64,000 bases of DNA from Mobula hypostoma (lineage: Eukaryota): assembly GCF_963921235.1 (NCBI RefSeq), contig NC_086097.1, positions 82,586,001 through 82,650,000 of the forward strand, read 5' to 3'. A model generated the notes under the pieces. The model did no database searches. It saw only the letters and a list, made by a program, of their open reading frames with translations, and was not told the DNA's origin. Made by a program: the position numbers and the translations under genes. The stretch's first letter is position 1, and each line of letters begins with the position of its first letter. Below are positions 8,869 to 62,179 of this stretch, one piece after another.

Positions 8869-9568
8869 TTTTTGCTTGTATTGTTGTATTTACCAGTACT
8901 ACCTTGCAACTCAATTGTTTTAACCTGCTGAGTTTCCTGCCTAATGTACAACTTGCATGACCTTCCAAAGCATTCTGAGAAAGGAGATGATGGTTCTGTT
9001 TTTAATCCCTTTATCGTGAATAATTCCAAAACAATTTGTATTCTATTTATGTGTCCCTCTTTAACACCTCAGAAGGCTGTGTGCCTTGCTTTGGGAAATA
9101 ACTTCTAATGGGTCTACAACCCAACTTTTCCTAATTCTTAGGTACTGGCTGAGCTAGGGTGCTAGTTACAACGACTCAGCGTAGTTAATAGATCCAAAGA
9201 GAACATTGTCCCAGTGCACAGTGCAGTGCAAAACCAATCAGGTTCTGCCGCATCTTGTATTTTATTTGTTGTAGGATGTGGAAATTTCAGCAATGTTATC
9301 CATCCTAGTTCCCCTGACGTATGAGGCAGTTAGAAGTCAACTGTGTAGCTGGTGTGGAAGTAGAGTACAGGTAGGCCAGATAAGGATGGAAAGGTTTCTT
9401 CTCAGAAAGTTTTCTTCTCTGAAAATTTTTGCATTTTTGAACCAGACAGGTTCTTATGTTGACCCAGTGGAGTTGTCAAGCACTCCAGAATTTAAACACA
9501 ATATTGCACTATATTAAAATTTCTATTATATTCTAATATAATCCCAGTAAAATAGTTTGGGGTTAGAT

Positions 9569-9666
9569 CACAAACATGAGAAAATCTACAGATGCTGGAA
9601 ATCCAGGCAGCATCTGTGGAAAAGAGTGAACAATTGATGTTTTGGGCTGAGACCCTTCATCAGTAA
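9569..9666 (-). mobile_element. 98-bp Penelope-derived mini insertion with a decayed hammerhead motif
   Basis: PLE terminus (AAATCTACAGATGCTGGAAATCC...GAGACCCTTCATCAG). 12-bp TSD TTGGGGTTAGAT at 9557-9568 and 9667-9678. Confidence 0.8.
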
Positions 9667-12149
9667 TTGGGGTTAGATTATTGGGTTTCTGAATAACTTC
9701 CTTGTCCTTTGAAGCCGAATTGAGAATTGTATCAAAGTGAATTTGAACGCTTATCTTTGTTCAATAAATGAGGATATGAAATTCAGGGAGAAAAATAATT
9801 ATATTTGTGGCTGCTTGAACAAATGTCTTTAATATGTGTTCTGTCTTAGAGCAAACTTGTTTGCATCATAAAGATCACCTAATGTTGTGCCTTGGGCTGC
9901 CAACTGCTAGGAATATATTCACTTGTACTTCATTTAACAGGCTAATGAGGTACTGCCACACCGAGCTACCACGCTAGGCATTATTTTTTGTTAGTTGATC
10001 TGTTGAATAAGTTGAAATTTTATCTTCTGATGAAGGATAGCTTTCATTCACACTAAACCATAAGATCTGTTCTCTTTTGGAATTGATGTATTTTGCTCAG
10101 AAACTCTTAATATCTGCAATAATGAAACTAGTATACCATCACTATGTGGTTATTTTATTCATTACTGCTCTGCATTGTATGAAGAGTCATTAACTAGGGC
10201 AATAATGAAAGCATTTTAAAGCAAATTAAAACTAGACTGACAGTCTTTCTTAGTCATCACTGGACCAAGAAATTTCCAAGATGTTCATCAGATATACCCA
10301 ATTACTGCAGGAGCGGATAGAAATAACACCTACAACAGTGTTTTAACAGACACCAGACAACTGACTGGGCATGTCTTGATAAAGGTCCAGGTTGCTTCTT
10401 GGCTTGACATTGTTTCTTGTGAGATAACACATAAAGGAAATTGAGGTGATATTTTCTTACATCAGCCGATTACTGAATTTTCTGAACCACGGCATTTGAG
10501 ATATCTTACACTTTGGTTTTTAAAGTATTGCTTTTCTGGAGCAGCTTGATTGGGATGGACCTTGGGGAGCAAAATTATCTGTGCAAGTCAGCAAGAGAAT
10601 GCTGGTTAATTTATTTATTGCCATCCTCAGCCTCTTAAGCTGCTTTTATCTCGGGTTGACTGCAGGGAGGATTAAATATTTGAAATTAATTTTGTTAGTG
10701 ATCTAGTTTGTGTTTGGATATGCCCTGTAGCCAAGAGGCTGTTAACATTCCTCAGATAATTGTGGCTAATCACTGCCTACACTGCCGTGTGAAGTGTACC
10801 TCGTTAACATCTGTTTGTTGCTCAATAGTTCATTGCTTTTGTAATACTTGATTTAACCTGCTAAATTCTACCTGTGAGTAATTTTGGTAAAAGACTCTTT
10901 TAAATTGCAGTTTAAAAAATAAAAATTTGTTATTTCAATATTTATACTGTGGGTCTTTAATTTCCTTGTGGGACATCTGTATTGCTATTAGGGCAGGTGT
11001 TTATCGCTGATTTTAGTTTGCTCTTTAAAATGGTGGCAGGTAATCAGTTTAAATCGTTGCTGTCCTGCAGTGCTGCTGGGCAATTCCATGATTTTTATCT
11101 AGTAACGATCAAGAAACAATGGGCATAAATTGGAAATACACCTGCTGCTATTGTCTGTCTAAATGCTTGAGGCTGTGGATTTAAGAGGTCATGCTGAGCA
11201 TGCCTTTGGTATTTAATAAAGTGTACACTGCAGCACTAGCGAATTGAATGAATATTTGGATTGTGGATGGCATGCTATTCAGTCAGGCTTTCTTCTTTCA
11301 TTTGGTGATGTGCTTTGTAATGAACATTGAAAAAAACAGCAGATGCTAAAAACTTTGAAATTAAAACAAAATATTGGAACATTGGGCCAAATAGCATCCA
11401 TGAAAGCAAACAGAATAATGTTTCCGTTTGGAGAGTCTTTGTCAGAAATTTACAGTAAAGGTGGTGGAGGAGCAGTAGGACAAAGAGAATGTTTGTCATT
11501 AGCAAAGGGTTAATAGGGGCAGTGAGAAGGTGATTATGTATTTTTTGTTGTAATTGCATAGCTGTGGGATAAACCCACAGTCCATTGAGAGAGAAGGAAA
11601 TTAATGGCGAAACCAGAGCCAATATCGCTGGCAGTAATAGTCTGGAAGATCTGCTGGTCCAAAACAATGAAAGTTCTGAGAATGTTGGATGATCAGAGTT
11701 GTGCTGTATTTTCTGTTTTATGTAATTTACCTTTCACTTGTTCCCGTCATTTCTAATTATTCACTGACTCATCTGCAACATAAATTATTTCCAGATATGC
11801 CTTTGCTCTTCTGCCAGGCTATTCAACTCAATATATCTCTCTATCGACAGAAGAAACTTACTGTTTTCTCCCCTCATTCTGGCTTCTTTGTTTGAGAAAT
11901 GCATCAAGACTTGTTTTTCCAGTCTGTGATATTTTGCAAATAGATTAGGTGGGTCCTTTTCATTCCTGCTGTTTAATATCCAATTTGAACATGAATATTA
12001 CTAATACTGTTCAATCCTTGTCAGATAGATTACTGCAGGAGAGGAATACATGTATATTAGAATGAAATGGGTTATTTTATGTGTCTTCTAATTTTGAAAG
12101 TAAATATTTCAAGCTGGCAATTTTTCTTATCATATTTTAATATTTTTAT

Positions 12150-12422: not shown

Positions 12423-12616
12423 TTTCTTCCAATTGACATTAACATTCGGAATATAGACAGGAAAGTTTACAAAATTACATATTTACAGTGGCAGGACATT
12501 CCAACTAGTTTCTGAGTACAAACTGCAGACAACCAAAATATAAATCCCTTTTGAAGGATTGCTCCATGAATATACAACTGACCAGAAAGTTAAGTGATAA
12601 AACAGATCTGTAATGA

Positions 12617-14915
12617 ACCCCGCAGTAATGACCCTTTCTCCCGTCTTCAAACCTCCTCCTCTTGCGAGGCACCCCACACTGGACTTCTACCTGCTCTGGA
12701 TCTTTTCATTGCCAACTGCTAACGGGACATCAACCATCTCGACTTAAGCATGCCGCTCTCCTATTCCAACCTCACCCCTTTCAAATGCTTTGCTCTCCAC
12801 TCCCTCCGTACCAATCCTAACCTCACCATCAGACTCACAGATAAAGAGGTGCTGGCAGACTGACCTCTACCTTGCTGAGGCCCAGCAACAACTCTCAGAC
12901 AGTTCTTCTTACTTACCCCTTGAACAGGACCCCAGCAAGGAACACCAGGCTATTGTTTCCTACACCATCACCAACCATATTAGCTCTGGGGATCTCCCAT
13001 CCACTCCCAACCTCATAGTTCCCGCACCTTCCATTTCTACCTCCTACCCACGATCCACAAACCCACTTGTCCAGGTAGACCCATTGTTGCAGCTTGTTCC
13101 TGCCGCACTGAACTCATATCAGCGTATCTCAACTCAGTTTTATCCCCCTGGTTCAATCCCTTCCTACCTACATCCGTGACACTTCATATGTTCTGGATCT
13201 TTTCAACGATTTCAAGTTTCCTGGCCCCCATCATTTTATTTTTACTGTGGATGTCCAGTCCATATAAACCTCCAACCCCCAACAGGAAGGCCTGAAAGCT
13301 CTCCATTTCTTTCTGGACACCAGACCTAACCAGTTCCTCTCCACCACCATTCTCCTCTGTCTAGAGGAACTTGTCCTCACTCTCAATAATTTCTCCTTTT
13401 ACTCCTCCCACTTCCTTCAAACAAAAGGTGTAGCCATGGCCACCTGCATGGGTGCCAGCTATGCCTGCCTTTTTGTCAGCTACGTGGAACAGTCCATGTT
13501 CCAAGCCTGCACTGTTGTCTGTCCGCCACTTTTCCTACACTACATCGACGACTGCATTGGTGCTGCTTCCTGCACTCATGCTGAGCTCGTCGATTTCATC
13601 AACTTTGCCTCCAACTTCCACCCTGCCCACAAATACACCTGGTCCATTTCCAACACTTCACTCCCCTTTCTCAATCTCACTCTCTCTATTTCTGGAGACA
13701 GCTTATCAACTGATGTCTATTATGAACCCACGGACTCTTACAGCTACCTTTTCCCACCCTGTTACTTGTAAAAACATCATCTCCTTCTCTCAATTCCTCC
13801 ATTTCGGCAGGAGATATCTTCCTTTTTAAAAGAAAGGGGCTTCTATTCCTCCACCATCAACACTGCTCTCAACTGCATCTCTTCCATTTCACACACATCT
13901 GCTCTGACCCATCCTCCTGCCACCCTGCCAGGATAGAGTTCCTCTTGTCCTCACCTACCACACCACCAGCCTCCACGTGCAGCACATAATTCAACAGAAT
14001 TTCTGCCATCCCCAACACGATCTCACCACCAAGCACATCTTTCCCTCTCCCCAATTTCTGCTTTCTGAGGGATTGCTCCCTATGCGACTCCCTTGTCCAT
14101 TTGTCCCTCATCACTGATCTCCCTCCTGGCATTTATCCTTGCAAGCAGAACAAGTCCTACACCTGCCCCTACACCTCCTCCCTCACTACCATTCAGGGCC
14201 CCAAACAGTCCTTCAGGTGAGACAGCACTTCACCTGTGAGTCTGTTAGGGTTTATATACTGTGCTCGGTGCTTCCTGTGTGGCCTCCTGTATAGCGGGGA
14301 GACCGCTTTGACAAGCACCTATTCACCATCCGCCAGAAAAAGTGTGATCTCCCAGTGGTCACCCATTTTAATTCTATTTCCCATTCCCATTCCCATTCCA
14401 ACATGTCAGCCCATGGCTTCCTTTACTGCTGCGATGAGGGCACACTCAGGTTGAAGGAGCAACACTTTATATTCTGTTTGGGTAGCCTGATGGCATGAAC
14501 ATCGATTTCTCGAATTTATGATAATGGCCCCCAACCCCCTCCTTTACCATTTCCCACCCACTTTTTCCTCTCTCACCTTATCCTTGCCTTCCCATCGCCT
14601 CCCTCTGGTGCTCCTCCCTTTTCTTTTTCCTCATGGCCTTCTGTCCTCTCCTATCAGACTCCCCCTTCTCCAGCCCTGTATCTCTTTCACCTATCAACTT
14701 CCCAGCTCTTTACCTCATCCCTTCCCCCTCCCGGTTTCACCTATCACCTTGTGTTTCTCTCTCCCCTTGCCAACCTTTTAAATTTACCCATCTTTTTTGA
14801 TCACAGCCTGAAACGTCAACTGTACTTTTTTCAATTGATGTTGCCTGGCCTGCAGAGTTCCTCCAGTATTTTGTGTGTGTTGCTTGGATTTCCAGCATCT
14901 ACAGATTTTCTCTTG
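12617..14915 (+). mobile_element. Penelope-like retroelement (RT + GIY-YIG endonuclease + terminal repeat), frameshifted
   Basis: RT motifs FTVDVQS (about 13240), QTKGVAMATCMGASYACLF and YIDD (ORF 13436). GIY-YIG-like IYCARCFLCGLLYSGET (ORF 14236). PLE terminal repeat ending CCAGCATCTACAGATTTTCTC. Confidence 0.9.
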
Positions 14916-14991
14916 TCTAAAATGAACTGTGCCTTAAGTAGCAGGGATACACATTTAGTAATGTTCTAAAAGCAAGAACATTCATCATTTG

Positions 14992-15369
14992 ACACACATA
15001 AAAGTTGCTGGTGAACGCAACCGGACAGGCGGCATCTCTAGGAAGAGGTACAGTCGACGTTTCGAGCCGAGACCCTTCGTCAGGACTAACTGGAAGAAGA
15101 GCTAGTAAGAGATTTGAAAGTGGGAGGGGGAGGGGGAGATCCGAAATGATAGGAGAAGACTGGAGGGGGAGGGATGGAGCCAAGAGCTGGACAGTTGATT
15201 GGCAAAAGGGATATGAGAGGATCATGGGACAGGAGTCCTAGGGAGAAAGAAAAGGGGGAGGGGGGAAAATCAGAGGATGGGCAAGGGGTGCAGCCTGGCC
15301 TGCTGCATTCACCAGTAACCTTTATGTGTGTTGCTTGAAATTCCAGCATCTGCAGATTTCCTCGTGTTT
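14992..15369. mobile_element. Young Penelope-derived non-autonomous insertion with inverted termini
   Basis: A minus-oriented terminal repeat (14992-15290) is fused to a plus-oriented terminus (about 15295-15369). Perfect 14-bp TSD ACATTCATCATTTG at 14978-14991 and 15370-15383. Confidence 0.88.
15051..15088 (-). ncRNA. Minimal type I hammerhead ribozyme, intact core
   Basis: The minus strand reads UAGUC-CUGACGA-A-GGG-UCUCGG-CUC-GAAA-CG-UC-GACUG. Stem I UAGUC/GACUG, CUGANGA and GAAA boxes, stem II, palindromic ACGU stem III and a GUC cleavage triplet are all present. Confidence 0.82.
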
Positions 15370-15474
15370 ACATTCATCATTTGTCTTTCCCTATGTAGAT
15401 TCAATGGGACAGAATCAGAAATGTACCACACCCAATAATTGGTTTCACTAGCCACTAGATATCATTTGGATGTG

Positions 15475-15630
15475 AAACACAAGAGATTCTGCTAATACTG
15501 GAAATTTTGAGCAACAAACACAAAATGCTGGAGGAACTCAGCAAGGCAGGCAGCATTTATGGAGAGGAATAAACAGTTGATGTTTCAGGCCGAAACCCTT
15601 GATCAGGACTGAAAAGGAAGGGGGAAGATG
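15475..15630 (-). mobile_element. Penelope terminal-repeat fragment with a mutated hammerhead (CUGAUCA)
   Basis: ACAAAATGCTGGAGGAACTCAGC...GATGTTTCAGGCCGAAACCCTTGATCAGGACTG. Confidence 0.75.
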
Positions 15631-18716: not shown

Positions 18717-18991
18717 CAGTAACACAAACAAAATACTGGAGGGACTCAGCAGGCTTGGCAGCATCTATGGGAAAGAGTAAACAGTCAATGTTTCAGGCTG
18801 AGGCCCTTCATCAGGTCTGGGGGAGAAAAAGATGAGAGGTCAGAGTAAGAAGGTGGAATTCCCAGTCCTGATGAAGGGTCTCAGCCGAAAATGTTGACTG
18901 TCTACTCTTTTCCTGGCCTGCTGAGTTCCTCCAGCATATTGTGTGTATTGCTTGGATTTCCAGAATCTGTAGATTTACTCGTGTCTTTGGT
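18717..18991. mobile_element. Penelope-derived mini element made of two inverted termini, each with a hammerhead motif
   Basis: Minus HHR motif at 18782-18819 and plus HHR motif at 18863-18900 (CAGTCCTGATGAAGGGTCTCAGCCGAAAATGTTGACTG). 11-bp TSD TCATTAAATGC at 18706-18716 and 18992-19002. Confidence 0.85.
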
Positions 18992-22710: not shown

Positions 22711-23980
22711 AGTATTTGGATAGACATGGACTGATTAAGGATATTCAGCATGGCTTTGTATGTGGTAGTTCATGTCTAACCAATCTTATAGAGTTTTTTT
22801 GAGGAAGTTACCAGGAAAGTGGATGAAGACAAGGCAATGGATGTTGTCTGCAAGGACTTTAGTCAGGCATTTGACAAGGTCCTGCAAGAAGGTTTAGTCA
22901 CTCGGTATTCAGGATGAGGTAGTAAATTGGATTAGACATCGGCTTTGTGGGAGAAGCCAGAGAGTGGTAGTAGATGGTTGCCACTCTGACTGGAGGCCTG
23001 TGACTAGTGGAGTGCCGCAGGGATCGGTGTTGGGTCCGTTGTTGTTTGTCATCTACATCAATGATCTGGATGATAATGTAGTGAACTGGATCAGCAAATC
23101 TGCGGATGACACCAAGATTGTGGGGTGGTGGACAGTGGGGAAGGTTATCAGGACTGGCAGAGGGATCTGTAGCAGCTGGAAAAATGTAGGCAAGGGCAAA
23201 GTTTTGTACTTCGGTAGGACCAACCAAGTCAAGTCTTACACAGTGAACAGCAGGGCAGCGAGGAGTGTGGTAGAACAAAGGGATCTAGGAATACAGGTAC
23301 ATAATTCATTGAAAGTGGTGTCACAGGTAGTTAGGGTCACAAAGAAAGCTTTTGGCACATTGATCTTTATAGTACAGAAGATGGGATATTATTTTGAAGT
23401 TGTATAAGATGTTGGTGAGGCCAAATTTGGAGTATTGTGTCGTCTAACTACATGAAAGATGTAAACAAGGTTGAAGAGTGTAGAGAACATTTACAAGGAT
23501 GTTGCTGGATCTGATGGACATGAGTTATAAGGAAAGATTGAAAAGGTTAGGAGTGTATTCTTTAGAACATAGAATATAAAGAGGAGATTTAATGGGGGTA
23601 TACAAAACTTATGCGGGGGGGATAGGGCAAATGCAAGAAGGCTTTTTTCACTGGGTTGGGTGGGACTACATCCAGAGGTCATGGGTTAAGGGTGAAAGGG
23701 GAGAAGTTTAAGGGGAACATGAGGTGAAACTTCTTCATTCGGAGAGTCATGAGAGTGTGGAATGAGCTGCCAGCACAAGTGGTGCATGCGAGCTTGATTT
23801 CAACATTTGAGAGAAGTTTGGGTAGGTACATGGATAGTAGAGGCAATGTAGGGCTATGGTCCCGGTGCAGGTCGACATGAGTAGGCAGTTTAAATGGTTT
23901 TGGCATGGACCAGATGGGCCCAGGACCCTTTCTCTGTGCTGTACTTCTCTTTGCGTCTATGACTCTAAAGCTCTATGACT
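22711..23980 (+). mobile_element. CR1 LINE, RT region to 3' tail, frameshifted
   Basis: ORF 22964: [24 protein letters not shown]...SADDTK. (CTATGACT)n-like tail at about 23957-23980. Confidence 0.92.
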
Positions 23981-24775: not shown

Positions 24776-25519
24776 TTTTTGAAAATAAAATCTCTCTGTT
24801 GACTGATCATTCCAACCGTGTCCGCGATTCTCTGTAACAGCCATTATTTCTGTAGTTGTTGCTGTGATACGTGGATTCAGTTTTAACCATTACTTCATTT
24901 CCCTGCAGTTTAGAGGCTCTGTAGCCTGGCCATTGGGTGGCACTGTAATGTATAGAGTTAAAATTCATGTCTGAATATGAGAAGGCCTCTTGAACTTGGT
25001 TTAGGGATTGGAATTATTTTAAATAATATTACTTCTGGTGGGATTATCTTATCAATTTTCCTGCATAAGTACAATTCTAATGACACTCAAAGAGCTCAAG
25101 GACAAAAGAACCCACTTGATTAACTCCCATCCACCATCCCAAACATCTATTTGTATACCATTGGCAGCGTTAAAAAATTGCTCAGCAGTTACTTAGTTAG
25201 ACGTTTTTGACATCATCTCTGAAATCCACAATCTGTTTTGGGGGACACAAAGCCAGCAATTTGATGGGAACATCAGGTTCACATAAAGTAGTATTCCAGT
25301 CTGAATTGAAAGTTTATCTCTGTGCCACCATTGTCACTGTAACTGCAACATCAGAAGGGCTGTAGTGTTCATGATGATAGCTCTCCACCATCTTCTCAAG
25401 ACTGCGAGGGGACGGTCAATAAATGCTGATCTTGCCAGTTACGCCAATATCCTGAAAATAAATAAGCATATTCAGCACACAGATTTCAAGTCTGATTCAT
25501 AGCTTGTTTCTTTCATTTG

Positions 25520-25675
25520 ACTTCTTCCCCCTTCCTTTCCAGTCCTAATGAAGGGCCTCACCCTAAAATGTCAATAACCTATTCCCATCCATAGATGCTG
25601 CTGAACCTGCCGAGCTCCTCCAGCACATCGTGGGTATTGCTCTGAATTTCCAGCCTCTGCAGTACCTCTTGAGTC
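25520..25675 (+). mobile_element. Penelope terminal-repeat fragment with a decayed hammerhead
   Basis: CCAGTCCTAATGAAGGGCCTCACCCTAAAATGTCAA...GATGCTGC...GAGCTCCTCCAGCA. Confidence 0.7.
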
Positions 25676-25997
25676 TATACTTTTTAAAACGTTCCTTTCC
25701 TTGAAATGATAGCAGGATTCACAGGAAAACAGCCACTCTCACCATGCACTTGTTTAAAATATACCATGGATAAATATTTCATATTGCACATACTAGTCAC
25801 TAAGTTTCTGCATACAGTCAAAATATTTTTATACCATTTTATTACCTGACATTGCTTTTAATGAGTATTTTTTCAATGTCCAAAATAATGCCCTCATTAG
25901 CATTCTTATTTGATGCAATATCTCATGTAACTGTGTCTAATTTCATTTATTAACACTCCTGTGGGATACCTTGTGAGATTATTGACAGTAGATTAAT

Positions 25998-37105: not shown

Positions 37106-37109
37106 CTGT

Positions 37110-44984: not shown

Positions 44985-46007
44985 AACACACACAAAACGC
45001 TGGAGGAAGTCAACAGGTCAGGCAGCATGTATGGGAAAGAGTGAGCAGTCAATGTTTTGGACTGAGAACCTTCGACAGGACAGGAAAGGAAGGGGAGAAG
45101 TCAGAGTAAGAAAGGGGGGGCAGTGGGGGACGTAGTACAAGGAGGCAGGTGATAGGTGAAACCAGGAGAGGGGGAGGGGTGAAGTAAAGAGCTGGGAAGT
45201 TGATTGGTGAAAGAGATAAAGGGCTGGAGACGGACAGGAGAGGACAGAATGCTACAAAATAAAGGGAAGGGGAGGAGCACTAGGGGAAAGTGACAGCTAT
45301 GTAAGGAGAGAAGGTGTGAGAGAGAAACAGGAATGGGGAATGTTGGGGGAGGGGGTATTACCAGAAGCTCAAGAAATCGATGTTCATGCCATCAGGTTGG
45401 AGGCTAGCCAAATGGAGTATAAGGTGTTGCTCCTTCAACAGTGTGGCCTTATCCTGGCAGTAGAGGGGGCCATGGACTGACATACTGACATGTTGGAATG
45501 GGAGCAGGAAGTAGAATTGAAATAGGTGGCCACCAGGAAATTCTACCTTTTGTGGCAGGTGCAGGAAAGGTGCTCGACAAAGCGGTCTCCTAATTTACAT
45601 CGGGAGTCACCAATATACAGGAGGCCACACCAGGAGCACCACATTCAATGATGACCACAACAGACTCAGTGGTGAAGTGTTGCCTCACCCTGAAGAACTG
45701 CTTGGTGCCCTGAATGGTAGTGAGGGAGAAAGTGTAGGTGTAGGAGAGAGATCAGTGAGGAGGAAGAAGTGGACAAGGGAGTCACGTAGGGAGGGATCCC
45801 TGTGGAAAATGGCGGGGGGGGGGATGTGGTTGGTGGTGAGATCCGATTGGAGATGGTGGAAGTTATGGAGAACTACGTGCTGGACGTGGAGGCTAATGGG
45901 GTGGTAGGTGAAGACAAGAGAACCCGTATCTCCGGTGTGGCGGCAGGAGAATGGGGTGAGGACAGCGTTGACCGTGGAGGAAGGGAAGGCCCTTTCTTTG
46001 AACATCA
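44985..46007 (-). mobile_element. Penelope-like element fragment (GIY-YIG region + terminal repeat, decayed hammerhead at 45046-45083)
   Basis: Collinear with 13830-14915. ORF 45685: FKERAFPSSTVN...YHPISLHVQH...RDPSLRDSLVH. Confidence 0.85.
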
Positions 46008-47202
46008 GTAGTGGAGGCAGATACACTAGTGAAATTTAAGAGACTACTAGACAGGTATATGGAGGAATTTAAGGTGGGGGGTAATATGGGAGGCAGGGTT
46101 TGAGGGTCAACACAACAATGTGGGCCGTAGGGCTTCTACTGTGCTGTACTATTCTATGTTTTTTATAAGAACATTAGAAATTGGAGCAGGAGTAGGCCAT
46201 CTGGCCCGTCGAACCTGCTCTGCCATTCAATAAGATCATGGCTGATCTGACCATGGACTCATCTTCACCTACCTGCCTTTCCCGCGTAATCCTTAATTCT
46301 CCTACTATGCAAATATCTATCCAACTTTGTCTTAAATATATTTACTGAGGTAGCCTCCACTGCTTCATTGGGCAGAGAATCCACAGATTCACCACTCTTT
46401 GGGAAAAGAAGTTCTTCCTCATCTCTGTCCTAAATTTACTCCCCTGATTCTTGAAGCTATGTCCTCTAGTTTTAGTCTCACCTACCAGTGGAACCAACTT
46501 TCCTGCCTCTATCTTATCTATCCCTTTCATAATTTTATGTTTCTACAATATCTCCTTTCATCCTTCTGAATTCATCAACTACAGTCCGAGGCAACTCAAT
46601 CTCTCCTAATAGTCTAACCCCCTCATTTCTAGAATCAACCTGGTGAACCTCCTCTGCACTGCCTCCAAAGCCAGTATATCCTTCCTCAAGTAAGAAGACC
46701 AGAAATGCATGCTGTACTCCAGGTGGGGCCTCACCAGTACCCTATACAATTGCAGCATAACCTCCCTGCTCTTAAATTCAATCCCTCTAGCAATGAAGGC
46801 CAACATTCCATTTGCCTTCTTGATAGCCTGCGGCACCTGCAAACCAACCTTTTGTGATTCATGCACAAGCACTCCTAAGTACTTCTGCTCAACAGCATGC
46901 TGCAATTTTTTTACCATTTAAATAATAATCTGTTCTTCTATTTTTCCTTCCAAGGTGGATGACCTCGCATTTACCAACATTGTACTCCATCTGCCAGACC
47001 CTTGCCCACTCACTTAACCTATCTATATCTCTCTGCACAATTTGCTTTTCCACTCAATTTAGTGTCATCAGCAAATTTAGATACACTATACTCGGTCCCC
47101 TCTTCCAGATCGTTAATGTATATTGTGAACAGTTGTGGGCCCAGCACTGACCCCTGTGGCACACCACTCGTCACTGACTGCCAACCAGAGGAACACCCAA
47201 GT

Positions 47203-48587
47203 TGTCATGGTCCGGATCGGGGTTCCTTTAAATTTACCTTGTTTATGTTAGGATCCGGACCGTTGATTCCCTGTTTTCCCGTGTCCCTCGGCTTTGGTGA
47301 TTAGAGGCAATTAACGTTCGGCTGAACCGGTAGTTTATAGTCTCCAGCTTTCAGTTGTTCGGCGCGAGAGCGTCGGCAAAGTCATCAAAGGTACAGTGTG
47401 CCGATGTCATCTGGCCGGAGCAAGCCTAGTCTCTGCCGAAGCGAGTGCCAGTAATTCGCCCTTCCTCACCGGAGCAACCCTGTCAAGTTACCTCGCCGAA
47501 GCAAGCCTGCAAAGTTTCCGCATCAAGGTGTATCTGTCAGTTAACCCGCCGGAGAGAATCAAGAGCTGCTGTCTACTGTTCCCAGGCCGAATCTAGAGCT
47601 CGCCACTACCCGGAGGTTCCAAGTACCACGCCCAAGTCCTGGCTCCAGCAGCGTCCAAGTCCTGGCTCTGGCGGCATCCAAGTACCACGTCCAAGTCCAA
47701 GTCCTGGCTCCGGTGGCATCCAAGTACCATGTCCAAGTCCAAGTCCTGGCCCTGGCAGTCTGTGATTCCTGTCCTATCCCCCTGTCTGAATCCCTTCTCT
47801 GCCCCTCTCGCCTCTAGCCCTCGTCTGTAGCCCTCGCCTGCACTTCGGTCTAGTTCTATCGCTGGAACTAGATAGGAACTGTGTTGTTCTTTGGTGTTTG
47901 TCTTGTCTTGTCCTCGCCTCCGTGGGGTCAGTCAGGCTGTCTTGCCGTTGCTCCGCGGGGGGTCTTGTCTTGTCCTTGCCTCCGTGGGGTAAGTCAGGCC
48001 GTCTTGCCGTTGCCCCGCGGAGGGTCATGAGTCCCGGCCCTGTGTCCTGTATCCAAGGAGGGGTCCCGGCTCTCTGTTCTGTGTGTGAGTCCCGGCCCTA
48101 TGTCTTGTACCCAAAGAGGGGTCCTGGCTCTCTGTTCTGTGTGTGAGTCCCGGCCCTATGTCCTGTACCCAAGGAGGGGTCTCGACTCTGTGTTCTGTGT
48201 ATGTGTCCATGGTTCCATGTACCTGCTCTCCTGAGACCAAGGCTCTGTTTTCCATGTTTCTCCTCTCCCTAGCCCATGTCATGTCTATGCCTGGTTCTGG
48301 GGTCCAAGCCCGAGGCAAGACCCAGGTACTGGGTCCTTGCCCAGTCTCAGGCTCAGAGTCCATACCCTAGCCTCTTCATGCCTCCTCTAGTTCTGGGAGC
48401 CGATTTCGCATCCTAGCCCAGACCCTTGGTCCCAGCCTAGTCGTGGTCCTCAGTCCTTGTCCAGTTCGCTATTCCTACTCCTGCCTTGCTCTCCTGGTTT
48501 CGAACATAAACTAAATTTAGTTAACCTCACAAGATGTGTCTTGCATTTGGGTCCACCGTTGCTCCCAATTCCTCTGCCAATGTGACA
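47203..48587 (+). mobile_element. Solo LTR (probably Gypsy-type), 1385 bp, with internal tandem repeats
   Basis: Termini TGTCA...TGACA; perfect 5-bp TSD CAAGT at 47198-47202 and 48588-48592; CpG-rich. The CR1 sequence resumes on both sides. Confidence 0.9.
48028..48201 (+). repeat. 58-bp tandem repeat, 3 copies, inside the LTR
   Basis: Units beginning TGAGTCCCGGCCCT start at 48028, 48086 and 48144. Confidence 0.9.
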
Positions 48588-49764
48588 CAAGTATCCCAAA
48601 TCTCTGCTTTCTATTGGTTAACCAATCCTCTAATATACTAATACATCATCCCCAACTCTTATGGATAAGTCTTTTATGTCTTTATCAAATGCCTTCTGGA
48701 GATCCAAGTAAATAACGTCCATCTGTTCCCCTCTATACACTGCGCTTGTTATGTGCTCAAAAAACACCAGTAAGTTTGTCAAACAGGACCTGCCTTTGCT
48801 GAATCCATGCTGTGTCTGCCTGATGGATCCATTTCTTTCCAGATGCCTCACTATTTCTTCTTTAATGATAGCTTCAAGCATTTTCCTAACTACAGATGTA
48901 AAACTAACTGGCCTAATGTTACCTGCCTTTTGCCTACATCCTTTTTTGAAGAGTGACATGACATTTGCCTCCTTCCAATCTGCCGGGATCTGCAGAAGAG
49001 TCCAGAGAATTTTGGTAAATTATCACCAAAGCCTCAACTATAACCTCTGCCATTACTTTCAGTACCCTGGGATACATTCCATCAGGACCAGGGGACTTGT
49101 CTGTCTTTAGGCCCACAAGTTTGCACAGCACTACCTCTTTAGTGATAGTTGTGGTATTGAGGTCCTCACCTCCCATCACATCCATATCATCTCTCTTCGG
49201 CGTGTTAGACATGCCCTCCACCATGAACACCGACACAAAATAGTCATTCAAAGCCTCACCCATTTCCTCATTACCCAATATCAATTCCCTCTGCTTGTCT
49301 CCCAGGGGACCCATGTTCACTTTGGCCACCCTTTTCTGGTTTATATAGTTATAAAAACTCTTACTATCATTTTTATATTTTGAGCTAGTTTATTTTCATA
49401 ACCTATCTTCCCTTTATTGCTCGCTTAGTGGTTCTTTGTTGCATTTTAAAGTTTTCCCAGTCTTCCAGTTTCCCACTACTCTTGGCAACTTTGTTCACAC
49501 AAGCTTTTAGTTTGATGCCTTCCTTTATTTCCTTAATTCCCCACCCTTACTGTCCTTGCTTTTAACTGGAATATACTTTTGTTGAGACCCATGAAAAGTC
49601 TCTTTGAAAGTCTTCCACTGTTCTGCAATTGTCCCACCATACAGCCTGTGTTCCCAGTCTACCCTATTGAATTTCTCCCTTATCCCATTGTGGCCCCCCC
49701 TTGTTTAGGCATAATAAACTGGTTTTAGATCGAACTATTGCACCCTCCATTTGTATGAGAAGGA

Positions 49765-50215
49765 GAATATCTCAGTTGTTCTGGAATGAAGACCCTCATC
49801 CTGAGAGCATATGTGGCAGAGATGGAGGAACTAAGAAAAGAGAATGGCATTTTTACAAGTGACAGGATGGGAAGAGTTATTGTCCAGATAGTTATGAGAG
49901 TCAGCGGGTTTGCAAAATATATCAATAGATAAACTGTCACCAGAGTTGGAGACAGAGAGATTGAGAAAGGGGAGAGAGGTGTTGGAAGCGGACGAATTAA
50001 ATTTGAGGACAGGGTGAAGTTGGAGGCAATGTTTTGAAATTGAGTGGATGAAGTAGCACCAATACAGTCAACTATGTAGTGTAGGAAGAACTGGGGAGTG
50101 ATGCCTGTGTAGGCTTGGAACAAGGACTCTCCCATGTAGCCGACAAAAAGGATGGCATAGCTGGACCCAAGCAAGTGTCCATGTTTTGGAAATGGTGTTT
50201 GACAACTTTATCTCC
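49765..50215 (-). mobile_element. Penelope-like RT fragment
   Basis: ORF 49725: LGSSYAILFVGYMGESLFQAY...FLHYIVDCIG. Confidence 0.8.
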
Positions 50216-53305: not shown

Positions 53306-54172
53306 TTTATGAGAAGACCAATAACCTTGGATATATTTCAGAATAAGGTCTTAGAGGTCACGAATCTATGCTAGAGAGCTGAAGGCATTGAATCACTGAA
53401 TAGGTGGAGAGTTTTGATCAAATTATTTTTGTATTACAGGGAAGTTGAGGGCAGGCAGGAAAGTGCTAAGGCTCAGTTCCAGTCAGTGATGATCTTATTG
53501 AACATTAAAGTTGAAAAATATTCACGCCATTGCCAGAATATGAGGTGTTATTCCCCTGGTATATGTCAGGCCTCACTGCAGTAGTGGAGAAGTGTAAGGA
53601 TGGACACGTTTGTGGAAGAATGGGAAACAGAATTGAAATGGCATGTAACTGGGAGCTTGGGATAGCCATTTTGGAAAGAAGAAATGTTCTGAAAAATGGT
53701 TGCTCAAAAACCTACACTTGGTCTCACCAGTGTAGAGGAGGCCACATCCGGAGCAACAAATGCAGTAGATGAGGTGAAGGAGGACATGTTTGTGAATCTT
53801 TGCCTCATCCGGATGTAGTGAGGGAGGAGTGTAAGAACAAGTGTTACACCTTTTGCAATTGCAGGGGAAAGTCCCAGGGGTCAGGGATATGTGGGTGGGG
53901 AGGTCTGTGTGGACCAGGGAGTCACAGAGAGAGTGGTTCCTCTGGAAGGAGGAAAAGTGGAGTGAGGAGAAGACATTGCAGGATATTGTTGTAGCTGGTG
54001 GAAATAATGAATGATGTGCTGGATGTGAAGCTCGTGGAGTAAAGGGAGAGGACTAGGGGACCTTTACCACTGTTTGGTCTGGAGGAAGATAAGGTGAAAA
54101 ACAGAGGAGGTGTGTGAGTGTTCTTAATCAACTACAGCAGAAAGGAAGCCACATTTCTTGAAAAAGGAGGAT

Positions 54173-57100
54173 CAGTACTTGGAGCTATGATGTTGTGGCC
54201 ATTACAGAGACTTGGATGGCTTAGGGGCAGGAACGGTTACTTCGAGTGACAGGCTTTAGGTGTTTCAGAAAGGACAGGGAGGGAGGCAAAGAGGTGGGGG
54301 CATGGCACTGTTGATCAGAGATAGTGTCACAGCTGCAGAAATGGAGGAAGTCATGGAGGGATTGTCTACGGAGTCTCTGCGGGTGGAAGTCAGGAACAGG
54401 AAGGGGTCAATAACTCTACTGGGTGTTTTTTGTAGATCACCCAATAGTAACAGGGACATTGAGGAGCAGATAGGGAGGCAGATTCTGGAAAGGTGTAATA
54501 ACAACAGGGTTGTTGTGGTGGGAGATTTTAATTTCCCAAGTATCGATTGGCATCTCCCTAGAGCGAGGGGTTCAGATGGGTTGGAGTTTGTTAGGTGTGT
54601 TCCGGAAGGTTTCTTGACACAATATGTAGATAACCCTACAAGAGGAGAGGCTGTACTTGATTTGGTATTGGGAAATGAACCTGGTCAGTGTCAGATCTCT
54701 CAGTGGGAGAGCATTTTAGAGATAGTGATCACAATTCTATCTCCTTTACTATAGCATTGGAGAGGGATAGGAACAGACAAGTTAGGAAAGCATTTAATTG
54801 GAGTAAGGGGAAATATGAAGCCATCAGGCAGGAACTTGGAAGCATAAATTGAGAACAGATGTTCTCAGGGAAATGTGACAAAGGTTCAGGGGATATTCGT
54901 GTGGAGTTCTGCATAGGTACATTCCAATGAGACAGGGAAAGTGTACAAAGGCTGTTGAAAATCTAGTCAAGAAGAAAAGAAGAACTTACGAAGGGTTCAA
55001 AAAACTAGGTAATGATACAGTAGAGATCTAGAAGATTATAAGGCTAGCAGGAAGGAGCTTAAGAATGAAATTAGGAGAGCCAGAAGGGGCTATGAGAAGA
55101 CCTTGGTGGACAGGATTAAGGAAAAACCCAAGGCATTCTACAGGTATGTGAAGAGCAGGAGGATAAAATATGAGAGAATAGGACCAATCAAGTGTGACAC
55201 TGGAAAGGTGTGTATGGAAGTGGAAGAGATATCAGAGGTACTTAATGAATACTTTGCTTCAGTATTCACTACAAAAAAGGACCTTGGAAATTGTAGGGAT
55301 GACTTACAGTGGACTGAAAAGCTTGAGCATATAGATATTAAGGAAGAGAATGTGCTTGAGCTTTTGGAGCAGACGAGATGTACCCCAGGCTACTGTAGGA
55401 GGCGAGGGAGGAGATTGCTGAGCCTCTGGCGATGATCTTTGCATCATCAATGGGGACGGGAGAGGTTCCGGAGGATTGGAGGGTTGCAGATGTTGTTTCC
55501 TTATTCAAGAAAGGGAGTAGAGATAGCCCAGGAAATTATAAACCAGTGAGTCTTACTTCAGTAGTTGGTAAGTTGATGGAGAAGATCCTGAGAGGCAGGA
55601 TTTATGAAAATTTGGAGAGACATAATATGATTAGGAATAGTCAGCTTGGCTTTCTGAAAGGTAGGTCGTGCTTTACGAGCCTGATTGAATTTTTTGAGGA
55701 TGTGACTATACACATTGATGAAGGTAGAGCAGTAGATGTAGTGTATATGGATTTCAGCAAGGCATTTGACAAGGTACCCCATGCAAGTCTTATTAAGAAA
55801 GTAAGGAGGCATGTAATCCAAGGGGACATTACCTTGTGGATCCAGAACTGGCTTGCCCACAGAAGGCAAAGTGCGGTTGTAGGTGGGTCATATTCTGCAT
55901 GGAGGTCGGTGACAAGTGGTGTGCCCCAGGGATCTGTTCTGAGACCCTTACTCTTTGTGATTTTTATAAATGACCTGGATGAGGAAGTGGAGGGGTGGGT
56001 TAGTAAATTTGCTGATGACACAAAGTTTGGAAGTGTTGTGGATAGTGTGGAGGGCTGTCAGAGGTTACAGCAGGACATTGATAGGATGCAAAACTGGGCT
56101 GAGAAGTGGCAGATAGAGCTCAACCCAGATAACTGTGAGGTGGTTCATTCTGGAAGGTCAAATATGGTGACAAAATATAGCATTAATGGTAAGACTCTTG
56201 GCAGTGTGGAGGATCAGAGGGATCTTGGAGCCCAAGTCCGTAGGACAGGGGTCCCCAACCTCTTTGGCACTGCGGACCGGTTTAATATTGACAATATTCT
56301 TGCAGATTGGCCGACCGGGTGGGGGGTGGGGTAGGGCTGCCAACAGACAAGAATAGCAGTCAAATACATTGTGTTTACCCCGAGAAAGACTACCATGACC
56401 ATGAAGCCTTGCACAGACACCTATGTGCGCATGCGTGACATGCGCATACGAGTACGTGCCCATTTTTTCCCTACAAATCATTTTTGGCAATTCTTTTCAG
56501 TGAAACTACACTGTACATGCATTATTTCTACTTTATTTAGGCTGTGTATTTATCATATCATTCCTGCTTTTACTATATGTTAGTGTTATTTTAGGTTTTA
56601 TGTAACAGTGCATGATAATAGTGATAAGTCAATTATAGGTCACTTATAAGTTAATAGCATCATAACATTTTAAGTAACGTTTGGATATTAAACACACAGC
56701 ATATATTTTCCCCATATGAACATATAAGATCATTGTAACACACCAATATCGCTGAATCAGTGGGAGCCCTGGGCTTGTTTTCCTGCAACAAGACGGTCCC
56801 ATCGAGGGGTGATGGGAGACAGTGATACTCGAACGGGGTTCCTTATGTCCGGTCTATTCTGCAATTTAGTTTTCGTTGCATTCCTTGCAGAGATATGTTG
56901 GAAATGGAAGCAATGTTTTCAGTGATTTCGTGGCTATCTCAGAATATTTAGCCTTGACTTTGATCCAGAATGCCGGCAGAGATGTTATGTCAAACATACT
57001 TTTCAGCCCGCCGTCATTTGCAAGCTCGAGGAGTTGATCTTCTTCCTGCGCTGACATGGATGACGCACAGGTAATGACCTCGCATGTGTTCAAATTCAAC

Positions 57101-57880
57101 AGTGGCGGGACAGGGAATGAGGAAAGGTGCAGCTGACTCATATCGCCAAATCATATCGTTTCCTTGCGGCCCGGTAGCACATGCTTTGTGGCCCGGTGGT
57201 TGAGGACCGCTGCCATAGGACACTCAAAGCTGCTGCTCAGGTTGACTCTGTGGTTAAGAGGGCATACAGTGCATTGGCCTTCATCAATCATGGGATTTGA
57301 GTTTAGGAGCCAAGAGGTAATGTTGGAGCTATATAGGACCCTGGTCAGACCCCACTTGGAGTACTGTGCTCAATTCTGGTTGCCTCACCACAGGAAGGAT
57401 GTGGAAACCATAGAAAGGGTGCAGAGGAGATTTACAAGGATGTTGCCTGGATTGGGGAGCATGCCTTGTGAGAATACTGTAGGTTGAGAGAACTCGGCCT
57501 TTTCTCCTTGGAGTGATGGAGGATGAGAAATGACCTGATAGAGGTGTATAAGATGATGAGAGGCATTGATCGTGTGGATAGTCAGAGGCTTTTCCCCAGT
57601 ACTGAATGACTAGCACGAGAGGGCACAGTTTTATGGTGCTTGGAAGTAGGTACAGAGGAGATGTCAGGGGTAAGTTTTTATGCAGAGAGTGGTGAGTGCG
57701 TGGAATGGGCTGCCAGTGACAGTGGTGAAGGCGGATACGATAGGGTCTTTTAGGAGACTCCTGAACAGGTATACGGAGCTTAGAAAAATAGAGGTAATTT
57801 CTAAGGTAAGGAAATGTTTGGCACAGCTTTGTGGGCCGAAGGGTCTGTATTGTGCTGTAGGTTTTCTGTGGTTCTATGTT
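54173..57880 (+). mobile_element. Near-complete CR1 ORF2 (APE endonuclease + RT) with 3' tail, frameshifted and split by a hAT element
   Basis: YDVVAITETW, VVGDFNFP, LDLVL and SDH (APE). ORF 55432: [40 protein letters not shown]. Resumes at 57213 (LVRPHLEYCAQFW). (TTCTATG)n tail. Confidence 0.95.
56246..57212 (-). mobile_element. hAT (Charlie/Buster-type) deletion derivative, 967 bp
   Basis: TIRs CAGGGGTCCCCAACC / GGTTGAGGACCGCTG; 8-bp TSD CCGTAGGA / CCATAGGA. The minus strand encodes a hATC dimerisation remnant (SLPAFWIKVKAKYSEIATKSLKTLLPFPTYLC ... KQAQGSH*). Confidence 0.93.
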
Positions 57881-59257
57881 ACTATTTTGGATGTCCTGAA
57901 GTGGAAGGCTTCATCTTGAGAGCAGATACTGTAGCGATGGAGAAACTGGGAGAGAGGGTTGGCATCCTTATAAGAGATGTGGTGGGGAGAGGTGTTGTTT
58001 AAGTAACCGTGGGAGTCAGTGGGTTTATAGCAAATATCAGTGGATAGCTGAGATGGATACAGATAGATCTTGAAGCATCATTGGGTTTTCCCATTTAGGT
58101 GAACTTTCTCTCTTGTGAATTTATCCCCTTCCCCATCCATCTCTTTTTTTAAGTTCTCCTGTTCTCCAATTTTTGCCCCCTACCACCATCTTCGTTCCCC
58201 TTCTCCTTCCAGGTTCCATTCACCCACTGCACACTGTTCATTCACAGGCTACCCTTCTCCCTACCCCTGCCTTATTCAGTTCTGGTTCCTTCTGCCATTC
58301 ACCTCACCTGCAATGGTTCCCATTATCACTCCAGCACTGACTGTCCTTTGTGTTCCTGTTGATCACCCCCCCAGCAGCTGCCTCCAACCTTCATACTCCC
58401 CTGCCACACCTTGCTCCATCTGCCTCTCATTTATTTTCCACTCATTGCCCATCATGCACCTGCCACTGTCTCCCCTCTCATGGTGCAACCTGTCCATCTT
58501 TCACCCCTCCTCAGTCCATAAATCACCTTGGGTTCCTGTATCATTGCTCCCCTTTTCCTCTTCATACTGGCCATCTCCCCTTCCACTCTCTGACCAGATG
58601 CACAGCTTCAAGCTGAAGTGTCAACAGATCCTAACACACCACTCACCCCTAACCCCCCCCCCCCCCGGTAGATGCCGCTCAGCCAGCTGAATTTCTACAA
58701 TAGATTATTGCCCAGATTCCAACATCTTAGTTCTTACAAGTGTTCTCCAAGGGCAGTTAGGAATGAACAAAATGTTGGGCTAGCCATGATTGTCAAGGTC
58801 CAGTGATTGAATAGATGGAGAATCTGCAGGGACATGATGATTATATTTTTTGCTGTTCTTTGTCTTTGCTGGATATAGGAATGAAAATATTGTGGAAAAT
58901 AGAGTGTGTGTATTTTCTGTGTTTTTAAATGAAGAGACATGATTATGAAGTACATTGCCAGTTTGGCAAACCAGGCGTCAAATCTGCATTTCACATGGAT
59001 GTCATCAATTCTGCCCAATTTCTGTTTTCTGCAATCAGCACTGAAATTGTGCACACAATTAGCTCGTAAACAAGACTGAAGGCTCTTCTGCACTTGGATT
59101 GCTGAAATGATCACAAAAAGGAACGTAATTTCTTTCCCACATTTTTAGAAGTAACAAGTGGCAACCCACAATTGTTTCACTGTACAATTAAAAAATCACT
59201 GCTATTTATTTTAACCTTTTTGGCTGTGTTACATTTCAGCTTGTCAACTAGTGTAAG

Positions 59258-59453
59258 GACAGCACACAAGATGCTGTAGGATAGGAACTCAGTCAGTCAG
59301 GCAACATCTGTGGAGGAAATAAACAGTCACATCACAAAATGTCGTCTGTTTATTCTCCTCCATAAATGCTGCATGATTTCCTGAACTCCTCCAGTGTTTT
59401 GTATTTTGCTCAAGATTTCCAGCACCTACAGAATCTCTTGTGTTTATGAAGGG
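59258..59453. mobile_element. Penelope-derived mini element of two inverted termini with the hammerhead deleted
   Basis: CACACAAGATGCTG..GGAACTCAG..GGCAACATCTGTGGAGG followed by its inverse; short flanking repeat GTGTAAG. Confidence 0.65.
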
Positions 59454-61474
59454 GTGTAAGAAAGTTTTATTCCTTGAAATTTTTTTTATTTGTCTGTCAG
59501 CTGAGCAAAGTAAATTTGTTTTTTTTTGCTGAGTGCGCTTTAGTGGCTAGATAAAAGTAACAATTGCAACATGAAAAATGGGAATTGATTCTCTGACAGA
59601 AAGGCATGATTTTGCTTTTCTTTCTATTTAAAATGAGACTTTTTCCTCAAAGGAACAAACACACAAGAACGTTTTGTTTTCTTTGAGATGGGTGGCACTC
59701 TCTCCTATCAGAAATGTAACTCCAAAAAATAGTTTTAAAAATGGGAGAGAGGGAGCAGTTTCTGTTGTATAATTCTGAACTTCGTGCATAAGAGTACAAT
59801 TTACAGTAATTTAAATATGTTTCTCAATCTTGATTTTGCTGGCATGGTAAACCCAAGACTTAAAGCCAGGTCTTTATGCCCAAGATCCTTAAGTTCCTCC
59901 TATCCCAGTTAAATATCAATAAATTATTTTGCTTTTCATATTGCAACTCCTTTCTCTCGAGTCAGAACAGAAATTGCCAACGGTCACTTCTTCAGTCTTC
60001 TTATCATCATGCAATTGTGGACCTCCCATCTTATCAAGAAGGACAGCTTTCTGTAATGACATCGACAGAAGTGGTGAATTTCTCTCCATGTCCATCTCGG
60101 AATTACTTTTTGGTGACTGGCTGATGCAATTGCCACAATTTTAGCTATTGCACTCAGAAGGAAATGATACAAACATTTACCAGTTCTAACTTGGATAACG
60201 GACATTGTTCCCAGCTTACCTTAATGTAAGTAATAAACACATTATTTTCAAAATTATACCATGGATCATTGGCATTAGATTGGCATTACAGCATTTATTT
60301 TAAACAGTGGCCGGTGGAATTTAAAAAATGATTCACATGCCACTTATTCAAAGGCATGATGCTAGAAGTGTGGCAGTTTAATTTGCTTGGTATGCGTTTA
60401 CACAATATTGTGAAGTAGGTCCTGAGTAGAAAGATTTGTGAGTAATGATCTTGCATAGTAATGTTTATCTGAGCAAAGTGGTGCCATTTATCTTTTCAGG
60501 TTGTAAATAAAGGTTTAATGAAATTGTTCATGCTCATATGATATAGTAAATCACTTGGGGAGTATGTTTCCTGTTGTTTATTTGCTGAAGGGTTGAAGGC
60601 AGTGACATCTGCAATCCATACCTGAAAATTGATTGTTCTTGCTGTCACTGTGCAATTAAGTCATCACTGCTTATTTGTTTTGACTGATTTAAGTGCATTG
60701 CATTTCAACCTGTCAAGCACTTGCTAATTGTTTCAGGGTCCTGTGGAATAATTAAAAATAAAGTATCGCTGATCTGGTTCAGGGTAATAACTTTATCAGT
60801 TTCTAAAATGAAGTGTTAAAAGTGGTTCAAAATTAAGGAAGTGTATAGAAGAACCTTAGCCAAACAAATAAATATTTCAAAAAGTAAAACCAATGAAAAT
60901 AACTGAAAATTATGCCCATCATTTAAAGTTCTAAGCAAATTGTATATGTCAACATATACAACCCTGAGATTCATTTTCTTGTGGGCATACTCAATAGACC
61001 TATAGAGTAAGTATAACAGAATCAATGAAAGACCACCCATCTAGAGTGTTCAACTAGTGTGCAAAAGACAACAAACTGTGCAAATGCAAAAAGAAGACCG
61101 CCGTTGATTTGGTCTACAAGAGTGGTGTCATCCGCAAACTTGAGTATGGCATTGGAGCTGCACTTAGCCACACAGTCCAAAGTGTAAAGTGCGTAGAGTT
61201 GGGGGCTAAACACACAGCCCTGTGGTGCACCTGTGCTGATGGAGATTGTGGAGGAGATGTTGTTGCCAATGTGAATTGACCAGGGTCTTCGAGTGAGTAA
61301 ATTGAGGATCTAAATGCACAAAGAGGTATTGAGGCCAAGGTCTTGGAGCTTATTGGTTAGATTTGAAGGGATGGTGGTATTGAATGTTGAGCTGTAGCCA
61401 ATAAATAGCATTCTGATGTATGCTGAGGGGTTGAAGGCAGTGACACCTGAAATCCAAATGTGAATCTAGCTAAA

Positions 61475-61779
61475 GCAAACACGAGGAAATCTGCAGATGC
61501 TGGAAATTCAAGCAACACACACAAAGGGGTCATGTCAAGTGACTATCCAACTCGCAACACACACAAAATGCTGGTGAACGCAGCAGGCCAGGCAGCATCT
61601 ATAGGAAGAGGTACAGTCGATGTTTCGGGCCGAGACCCTTCATCAGGACTAACTGAAAGAAGAGATAGTAAAAGATTTGTAAGTGGGGGGGGGGAGGGTA
61701 GGGAGAGATCCAAAATGATAGGAGAAGACAGGAGGCGGGGGGGATAGAGCTAAGAGCTGGAAAGTTGATTGGCAAAATG
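61475..61779 (-). mobile_element. Young Penelope-derived mini insertion
   Basis: Near-identical to 14992-15205. 13-bp TSD GAATCTAGCTAAA at 61462-61474 and 61780-61792. Confidence 0.88.
61614..61651 (-). ncRNA. Minimal type I hammerhead ribozyme, intact core
   Basis: Minus strand UAGUC-CUGAUGA-A-GGG-UCUCGG-CCC-GAAA-CA-UC-GACUG, with an AUC cleavage triplet. Confidence 0.78.
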
Positions 61780-62179
61780 GAATCTAGCTAAAATTGTTTG
61801 AGGATTGAGTGAAGAGCCAATAAAATGACATCTGCCATGGACCTGTTGTTCTTCTCAGGCAGGAGTTGATATGTTTCATCACCAACTTCCCAAAAACTTC
61901 ATCACTGTGGATATAAGTGCTACTGGATGATAGTTGAGGCACATTACCATGTTCTTCTTGGGCACTGGTATTTTTTTTTAAAGAGCAAAAGAACTAAAAA
62001 CATAAAAGGAAACAAAGAGCACCTTTGCAGCAATATCCAAAATTTTTAAACAAGAGCAACAATTAAAAGTCATGGATAACACTTTCTCTGCTGGCAGAAA
62101 TGGGTAATTGCTCATCAATTATCTTATAAATTCTGTTTTCAGTTAATTTTACATAACTTTGGAGTCTCACATTAAACCA

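Follow-up and report, generated by a model that had tools for sequence, protein, structure and literature searches.

The DNA analysed here is a 64,000-nt stretch of the Mobula hypostoma genome (RefSeq assembly GCF_963921235.1, contig NC_086097.1, positions 82,586,001 to 82,650,000, forward strand), hereafter the window, whose own numbering is used throughout. Remains of Penelope-like elements (PLEs) make up a sizeable part of it: 15 mapped PLE intervals amount to 8,131 bp, or 12.7% of the window, and include both fragments of coding copies and short non-coding insertions, several of which carry a hammerhead ribozyme motif within the PLE pseudo-long terminal repeat (pLTR). The short insertions are very probably pieces of the 3' end of an abundant coding PLE, either truncated at their 5' side or folded back, which carry along a hammerhead of the known minimal type.

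The short insertions and their target site duplications

Four short insertions flanked by exact target site duplications (TSDs) of 11-14 bp had been reported in the initial annotation, and all four were confirmed where it had placed them. Two are monomers on the minus strand: insertion A (61475-61779, 305 bp), with a 13-bp TSD at 61462-61474/61780-61792, and insertion B (9569-9666, 98 bp), with a 12-bp TSD at 9557-9568/9667-9678. The other two are fold-backs, with arms on both strands: insertion C (18717-18991, 275 bp), with an 11-bp TSD at 18706-18716/18992-19002, and insertion D (14992-15369, 378 bp), with a 14-bp TSD at 14978-14991/15370-15383. The four differ in length and structure, and no common unit can be recognized. 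All four TSDs are exact, with a GC content of 27-42%. None of 400 random intervals of matched lengths was flanked by an exact repeat of at least 11 bp, the largest being 10 bp long, in 2 of the 400.

The same insertions had been described as consisting of terminal-repeat sequence only. This holds insofar as they are all PLE end pieces, but A also contains a 28-nt piece of unrelated sequence and B has an internal deletion of about 39 nt. Insertion B is formed by the PLE 3' end, including the terminal segment known as the tail; its 5' end is the first base of the hammerhead core, the 5' strand of stem I being absent, and G12 is replaced by A. Within 9628-9671, the flank beside this truncated hammerhead could pair for 5 bp with the stem I 3' strand, which is mutated; this is probably due to chance. 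Insertion A is a monomer with tail, whose 5' end lies 133 nt upstream of the core. The unrelated piece of A (61526-61553, in the region 61512-61567) lies between exact 14-bp direct repeats and adjoins the tail boundary, which corresponds to the second reverse transcription start site discussed below; no match longer than 10 nt was found for it elsewhere in the window. It is either a micro-insertion into the pLTR, with a TSD of its own, or the product of a template jump and restart during reverse transcription.

In insertion D, the left arm (14992-15287, minus strand) starts from the tail-less site and reaches 204 nt past the hammerhead, and the right arm (15288-15369, plus strand) begins 22 nt after the cut site and terminates at the tail. 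Insertion C is built similarly, with a tail-less minus arm, starting 45 nt upstream of the core, and a plus arm, starting 10 nt upstream of it, which ends in the tail. An 8-bp palindrome is found at the arm junction (18855-18862), the two hammerhead motifs lie on opposite strands, and on folding the insertion folds back on itself with z = -10.6.

Termini of the copies

Every copy with a preserved 3' end, including those described in the next section, stops either about 88-93 or about 131 nt downstream of C3 of the hammerhead core. The two termini lie about 38-43 nt apart in the window, the interval between them being the PLE tail. All six single-orientation copies with a 3' end have the tail; of the five tail-less ends, four belong to copies with an inverted partner arm, namely the four fold-backs present in the window (C, D, I and G), and the remaining one, copy H, has no recognizable partner. 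The two termini are common to the copies in the window and to those of related species: among the rows listed, contigs of relatives exit the element at 14916 into unrelated AT-rich flank in three organisms (counts of 855, 1372 and 1199), and at 15518, again into AT-rich flank, in two (665 and 617). Summed contig depth, which is not to be read as copy number, increases along the coding copy P1 towards the terminus, being in X13 15,065 at 12540-12873, 118,577 at 13208-13541 and 1,342,049 at 14878-15211.

Such an arrangement has precedents. Inverted 5'-truncated copies, with a 30-40 bp tail on one arm only, palindromes at the junction and TSDs of 8-10 bp, are described for canonical PLEs (PMC8557442, PMC3846280). 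Frangieh et al. 2024 (PMC11167929) attribute the tail to two internal start sites of the reverse transcriptase (RT), both strands of the target being cleaved and extended; they also report that insertion in vitro can do without the hammerhead.

At the opposite side, all of the 15 mapped 5' ends differ. Their positions with respect to C3, as read by eye from the alignments and with positive values upstream of the core, are -50, -28, -20, 0, +3, +10, +23, +30, +45, +133, +204, +810, +924, +1270 and +2170 nt; the ends thus span the interval between 50 nt downstream and 2170 nt upstream of the core, in a series continuous with coding copies, and the arms measure from 70 bp to 2.3 kb. In the end module, the short copies are 76-91% identical among themselves. 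P1 is 76-87% identical to them, within the spread of the short copies, which are therefore not set apart from the coding ones.

Parent element and other copies

Coding PLE relatives with RT and GIY-YIG domains had been reported from the same window, and remnants of them were indeed found at P1, in copies G and H and in internal open reading frames (ORFs). P1 is a 5'-truncated copy on the plus strand, at 12619-14916 (12607-14927 including its 12-bp TSD, which contains 2 mismatches). It consists of a broken RT, a Zn-finger linker and GIY-YIG remnants, followed by a pLTR from which the hammerhead is deleted; its terminal base, at the tail, is that of the short copies. Of 932 candidates searched with its RT fragment, 59 were longer homologues (E<=0.001), the top ones, from Mobula and Hypanus, being 73-78% identical. 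Three of the four full-domain homologues scanned contain both RVT_1 and GIY-YIG, while none of six PLE peptides from the window itself was matched by Pfam. One homologue, P0015, aligns its RT, linker and endonuclease (EN) onto the window remnants, where RT and EN are in order and contiguous with the same pLTR.

A CX4CxxC linker is found at 36915 and 53863, and agrees with the CX2-5CxxC Zn-finger expected between RT and EN; the linker of this form known from Neptune is reported also in Nematis (PMC8557442). The linker sequence points to a parent of Neptune or Nematis type, likely of the Neptune clade. The marks of endonuclease-containing (EN+) PLEs are present: a parent with RT and GIY-YIG, a pLTR with minimal hammerhead, two 3' termini, and variable 5' truncation together with inverted partners. 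No paper on the Mobula PLE family turned up in the literature searched, although Repbase or Dfam may catalogue it. PLE RT sequence is also contained in four ray proteins with host-gene annotations, P0002, P0004, P0007 and P0056 (chitinase domain protein 1, divergent kinase 1C, nicotinamide riboside kinase 1 and SLAM-like annotations): these are exonised or mis-annotated insertions.

Six further copies were mapped. Copy G, at 36200-38817, is a large fold-back with coding arms on both strands. Its minus arm (36200-37100) includes the tail-less end, the pLTR and EN; its plus arm (37104-37640 and 38169-38817) includes the RT thumb, EN and part of the pLTR, and a 37-nt deletion is common to both. 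The right arm of G is broken by about 500 bp of other sequence (37655-38165). Copy H (44981-46002, minus strand) is a 1-kb, 5'-truncated copy, with a mutated core, that begins at the tail-less site and extends as far as the region of the RT thumb. Copy I (59262-59447) is a small fold-back, on both strands, in which both arms begin inside the hammerhead, the left one near the predicted cut site. The remaining ones are monomers: E (15475-15630, minus strand), with tail, reaching about 23 nt past the core at its 5' end and with G8 mutated; F (25507-25678, plus strand), old, with tail and with core G5 mutated; and J (29604-29730, plus strand), decayed, which belongs to a more distant subfamily and has its start at the edge of the hammerhead. 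A search for TSDs found none for E and J, and weak candidates only for F, G, H and I. Homology further identified remnants of internal PLE ORFs, with no mapped 3' end, on the minus strand at 49759-50201, 53684-54066 and 57877-58074. Pattern scans for extra copies returned 32 metagenome loci and 1 viral locus, all discarded as chance matches, none of the 33 having homology to the window beyond the pattern.

Hammerhead motifs

About nine hammerhead-like motifs had been claimed for the 64 kb, including those near 15574, 25541, 36255 and 45046, and alignment combined with profile search did find nine motifs of one family, at 9663, 15083, 15606, 18814, 36287, 45078 and 61646 on the minus strand and at 18868 and 25542 on the plus strand, along with a further one of the more distant, older subfamily (29605, plus strand). 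Three weak profile matches, at 11334-11469, 33211-33299 and 58575-58727 (E 1e-4 to 3e-3), were excluded from all counts. A 27-nt hammerhead pattern, allowing up to 3 mismatches, occurs 6 times in the window and never in 100 shuffled versions of it.

The motif sits on the sense strand of the element and is made, in order, of a 5-bp stem I strand, CUGAnGA, one extra base, a short stem II opened by a G-C pair, GAAA, the palindromic ACGU, UC and the stem I partner; by sequence, it is a hammerhead of the minimal PLE type. Only one of the nine, within insertion D (about 15050-15088, minus strand), is complete; the other eight are altered in core, stems or palindrome, with core mutations in B, E, F and H and broken stems or palindrome in A, G and both arms of C. 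Judging from the pattern of the changes, decay after insertion appears to have fallen largely on CpG positions. A search of the window against Rfam, up to E 1, retrieved no hammerhead, its sole match being a chance miRNA. When five motifs and one longer stretch were folded as monomers, no z was below -1.4 and the predictions were inactive rods; such a rod is what would be expected from single copies of a dimer-type motif. Very many motifs are plausible genome-wide, and minimal PLE hammerheads on such a scale have already been published (PMC4209133).

Age and genomic setting

Contigs of related species run from unique flank into insertion B in three organisms and into insertion C in two: being present in relatives at the same flanks, B and C are old, shared insertions.

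Exons of the Churchill gene (CHURC1) are found at 4989-5130 and 8620-8711, in a region extending to 10940, the upstream one with a Pfam Churchill match. Insertion B lies downstream of the last coding exon (8620-8711) and before an AATAAA at 10918, and contigs of a run that is RNA by guess only match 9200-9599 and 9634-10899 with no difference. B is thus likely to lie, in antisense orientation, within the CHURC1 3' untranslated region; being antisense and mutated in the core, it would not cut the CHURC1 mRNA. A scan with short motifs found no exons of the neighbouring GPX and Rab genes.

Other repeats in the window are a Tc1-like DDE transposase remnant at 26714-27358 (Pfam DDE_3), a GC-rich minisatellite cluster at 47464-48208, with periods of 23-62 bp and no hammerhead motif, and reverse transcriptase remnants of long interspersed nuclear elements, at 55016-56334 (with an RVT_1 match for 55399-56334), 22898-23407, 48630-49389 and 46606-46917, which we take to be of CR1/L2 type.

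Origin of the short insertions

The TSDs, the common 3' ends, the differing 5' ends, the homology to coding copies and the orientation of the arms are directly observed in the window; the steps that may lie behind them are proposed here on the model of the PLE enzyme of Anolis (PMC11167929). The two strands of an AT-rich target would be nicked by the GIY-YIG endonuclease at positions 11-14 bp from each other, giving rise to the TSD. Reverse transcription would begin internally on the RNA, at either of two sites separated by about 40 nt, producing ends with or without tail. Extension and early joining of a single nick would result in a short monomer with tail; if the two nicks each served as primer, one per start site, their cDNAs would meet head to head in a fold-back, and only one of the arms would have the tail. 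Once inserted, the motif would decay. Any ribozyme activity of the hammerhead is putative; given its position, 90-130 nt from the start of copying, it likely just rides along.

The headline proposal of the initial annotation, a retrozyme-like non-autonomous family, finds no tandem units, no common internal breakpoints and no sequence of its own in the window, and the motif is mostly decayed. Its second proposal, extreme 5'-truncation products of a PLE, fares well, in view of 3' termini common with coding copies, differing 5' ends in all arms, several subfamilies and fold-backs of PLE type. A true retrozyme-like family, the units of which would come from tandem or solo master loci, self-cleave, circularise and be inserted in trans by the PLE enzyme, is very unlikely. 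Short, TSD-flanked non-coding copies are indeed common in the window, PLE-derived retrozymes with monomer derivatives exist, one chondrichthyan genome included (bioRxiv 2026.07.22.740005), and pLTR sequence is reported to suffice for trans-mobilisation in a rotifer (PMC3846280). However, no head-to-tail hammerhead unit is found in the window. The motif is absent from all 10 tandem-repeat rows; motifs on one strand are never closer than 523 bp, the closest pair belonging to separate insertions, and those of C are on opposite strands. Insertions A-D all differ in 5' end, length and structure; only 1 of the 15 arms starts near the cut site, and the 3' ends are shared with coding copies. The definition of a retrozyme fails on the 15 differing 5' ends, on the inverted fold-back structure of two of the four insertions and on the lack of a head-to-tail tandem: within the window there is neither a series of complete motifs in this orientation nor a defined unit with common boundaries, and in place of a canonical or intact type I hammerhead a minimal PLE-type motif is present, intact in one of nine. 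That the 5' ends were set by hammerhead cleavage is very unlikely, just one arm beginning near the cut site. The left arm of I does start there, and one copy keeps a complete motif, but 14 of the 15 arms start elsewhere, and 12 of 15 include or pass the whole core and hence must derive from uncut RNA; moreover, monomers are predicted to fold into the inactive rod, and the Anolis enzyme is reported to use uncut RNA, with no RNA-seq ends at the cut (PMC11167929). Another possible source is pLTR-pLTR recombination within longer copies; the resulting solo pLTRs, which are described in rotifers (PMC3846280), would retain a TSD around a non-coding remnant and could explain some of the monomers (B, A, E, F and J), as well as ends upstream of the hammerhead. 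They cannot produce the head-to-head fold-backs C, D, I and G, and their 5' ends should vary no more than the original 5' pLTRs did; as a general explanation they are quite unlikely.

Several points weigh against plain truncation of a coding PLE. The zone 0-45 nt upstream of the core contains the 5' ends of six of the 15 arms and has a hazard of 0.016 per nt, as compared to 0.003 and 0.002 on either side (about 5-10 times higher). The excess has a binomial p of 0.003 for this zone, chosen post hoc, and of 0.013 for 0-25 nt; truncation is, on this count, probably not uniformly random. The left arm of I begins within a few bases of the predicted cut. Exit counts from contigs of relatives refer to the 24 rows listed of 18,325, and the depth gradient along P1 is partly inflated, the terminal bin holding a younger subfamily. 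No empty site for the short insertions was found among the 15 joints listed, of 10,785, in relatives, which cover B and C, not A. Finally, tandem hammerhead repeats are reported in one chondrichthyan genome (bioRxiv 2026.07.22.740005). The excess of 5' ends would be explained if RT started at the internal site of the 5' pLTR and ran off the 5' end of the RNA just upstream of the hammerhead, yielding defined mini-insertions of 130-180 bp. The Penelope pLTR holds a transcription start site (PMC8557442), so that such run-off would fall near 0 to +45, and the template used in vitro was the pLTR-ORF junction, 5' truncation of which shortened the product (PMC11167929). Yet the six ends are spread over 45 nt rather than at a single point, and their number is small; the zone was picked after seeing the data, and when E, F and J, which have no exact TSD or junction, are dropped, 3 of 12 ends fall in it (p 0.09-0.13, 0.09 in the strict set); an upstream polypyrimidine tract also blurs the boundaries. 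We consider run-off a possible but doubtful contribution, which refines the truncation reading rather than excluding it; pLTR recombination or RT pausing could also contribute to the excess.

Truncation and fold-back of a coding PLE is an insertion pattern already published, and the Mobula copies are ordinary in kind: as it stands, the finding means little beyond a very abundant PLE family of cartilaginous fish following that pattern. Its use lies rather in the many TSD-bounded copies, which would allow a statistical read-out of the in vivo cycle of PLEs, in terms of strand versus RT start, of cDNA stops and of hammerhead cutting. Should run-off be true, an autonomous PLE would mass-produce ribozyme-bearing mini-insertions, with the pile-up of 5' ends as a "strong-stop" signature, genomic fossils would map the PLE transcription start, and there would be a direct route from PLEs to retrozyme monomers. 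An excess that held across the genome would connect the origin of retrozymes with internal initiation.

Comparison with known systems

The EN+ PLEs described by Craig et al. 2021 (PMC8557442) and Arkhipova et al. 2013 (PMC3846280) resemble the window copies in strong 5' truncation, head-to-head partners, a tail on one arm, junction palindromes, TSDs and a pLTR hammerhead. Their TSDs are 8-10 bp long in rotifers, as opposed to 11-14 bp here; the window differs from these published accounts also in its arms, often both tiny, and in the high density of copies.

In Poseidon PAc of Anolis carolinensis (PMC11167929), two RT starts bound the tail at a comparable distance downstream of a minimal hammerhead, and targets are AT-rich in both cases. 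The starts lie about 88-93 and 131 nt from C3 in the window, while one PAc site is reported 111-118 nt into an ORF beginning in the motif. Unlike Poseidon, the window elements carry the CX4CxxC linker of Neptune/Nematis type.

The motif itself agrees with the minimal type I hammerheads of PLEs (Cervera and De la Pena 2014, PMC4209133) in the CUGAnGA core, the extra base before stem II, G10.1-C11.1, GAAA, the palindromic 15.2-16.2 and the 5-bp stem I. Stem II is 3-4 bp long here and 7-8 bp in the schistosome families of that report, where PLE hammerheads are described as mostly single, on truncated PLEs, but also as opposite-strand pairs 100-700 bp apart, with thousands per genome. Motif abundance in Mobula is probably far above the 4,000-9,000 given there for coelacanth and Xenopus.

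By the published definition, a retrozyme has units repeated head to tail, with two or more complete motifs in succession, and forms circular RNA of unit length (PMC7229834; bioRxiv 10.64898/2026.07.22.740005). Metazoan non-LTR retrozymes (Cervera and De la Pena 2020, PMC7229834; Li et al. 2026) are similar to the short insertions in being non-coding, with a type I hammerhead, long TSDs and kinship to the PLE pLTR; they differ in the head-to-tail repetition of complete motifs, which does not occur within the window.

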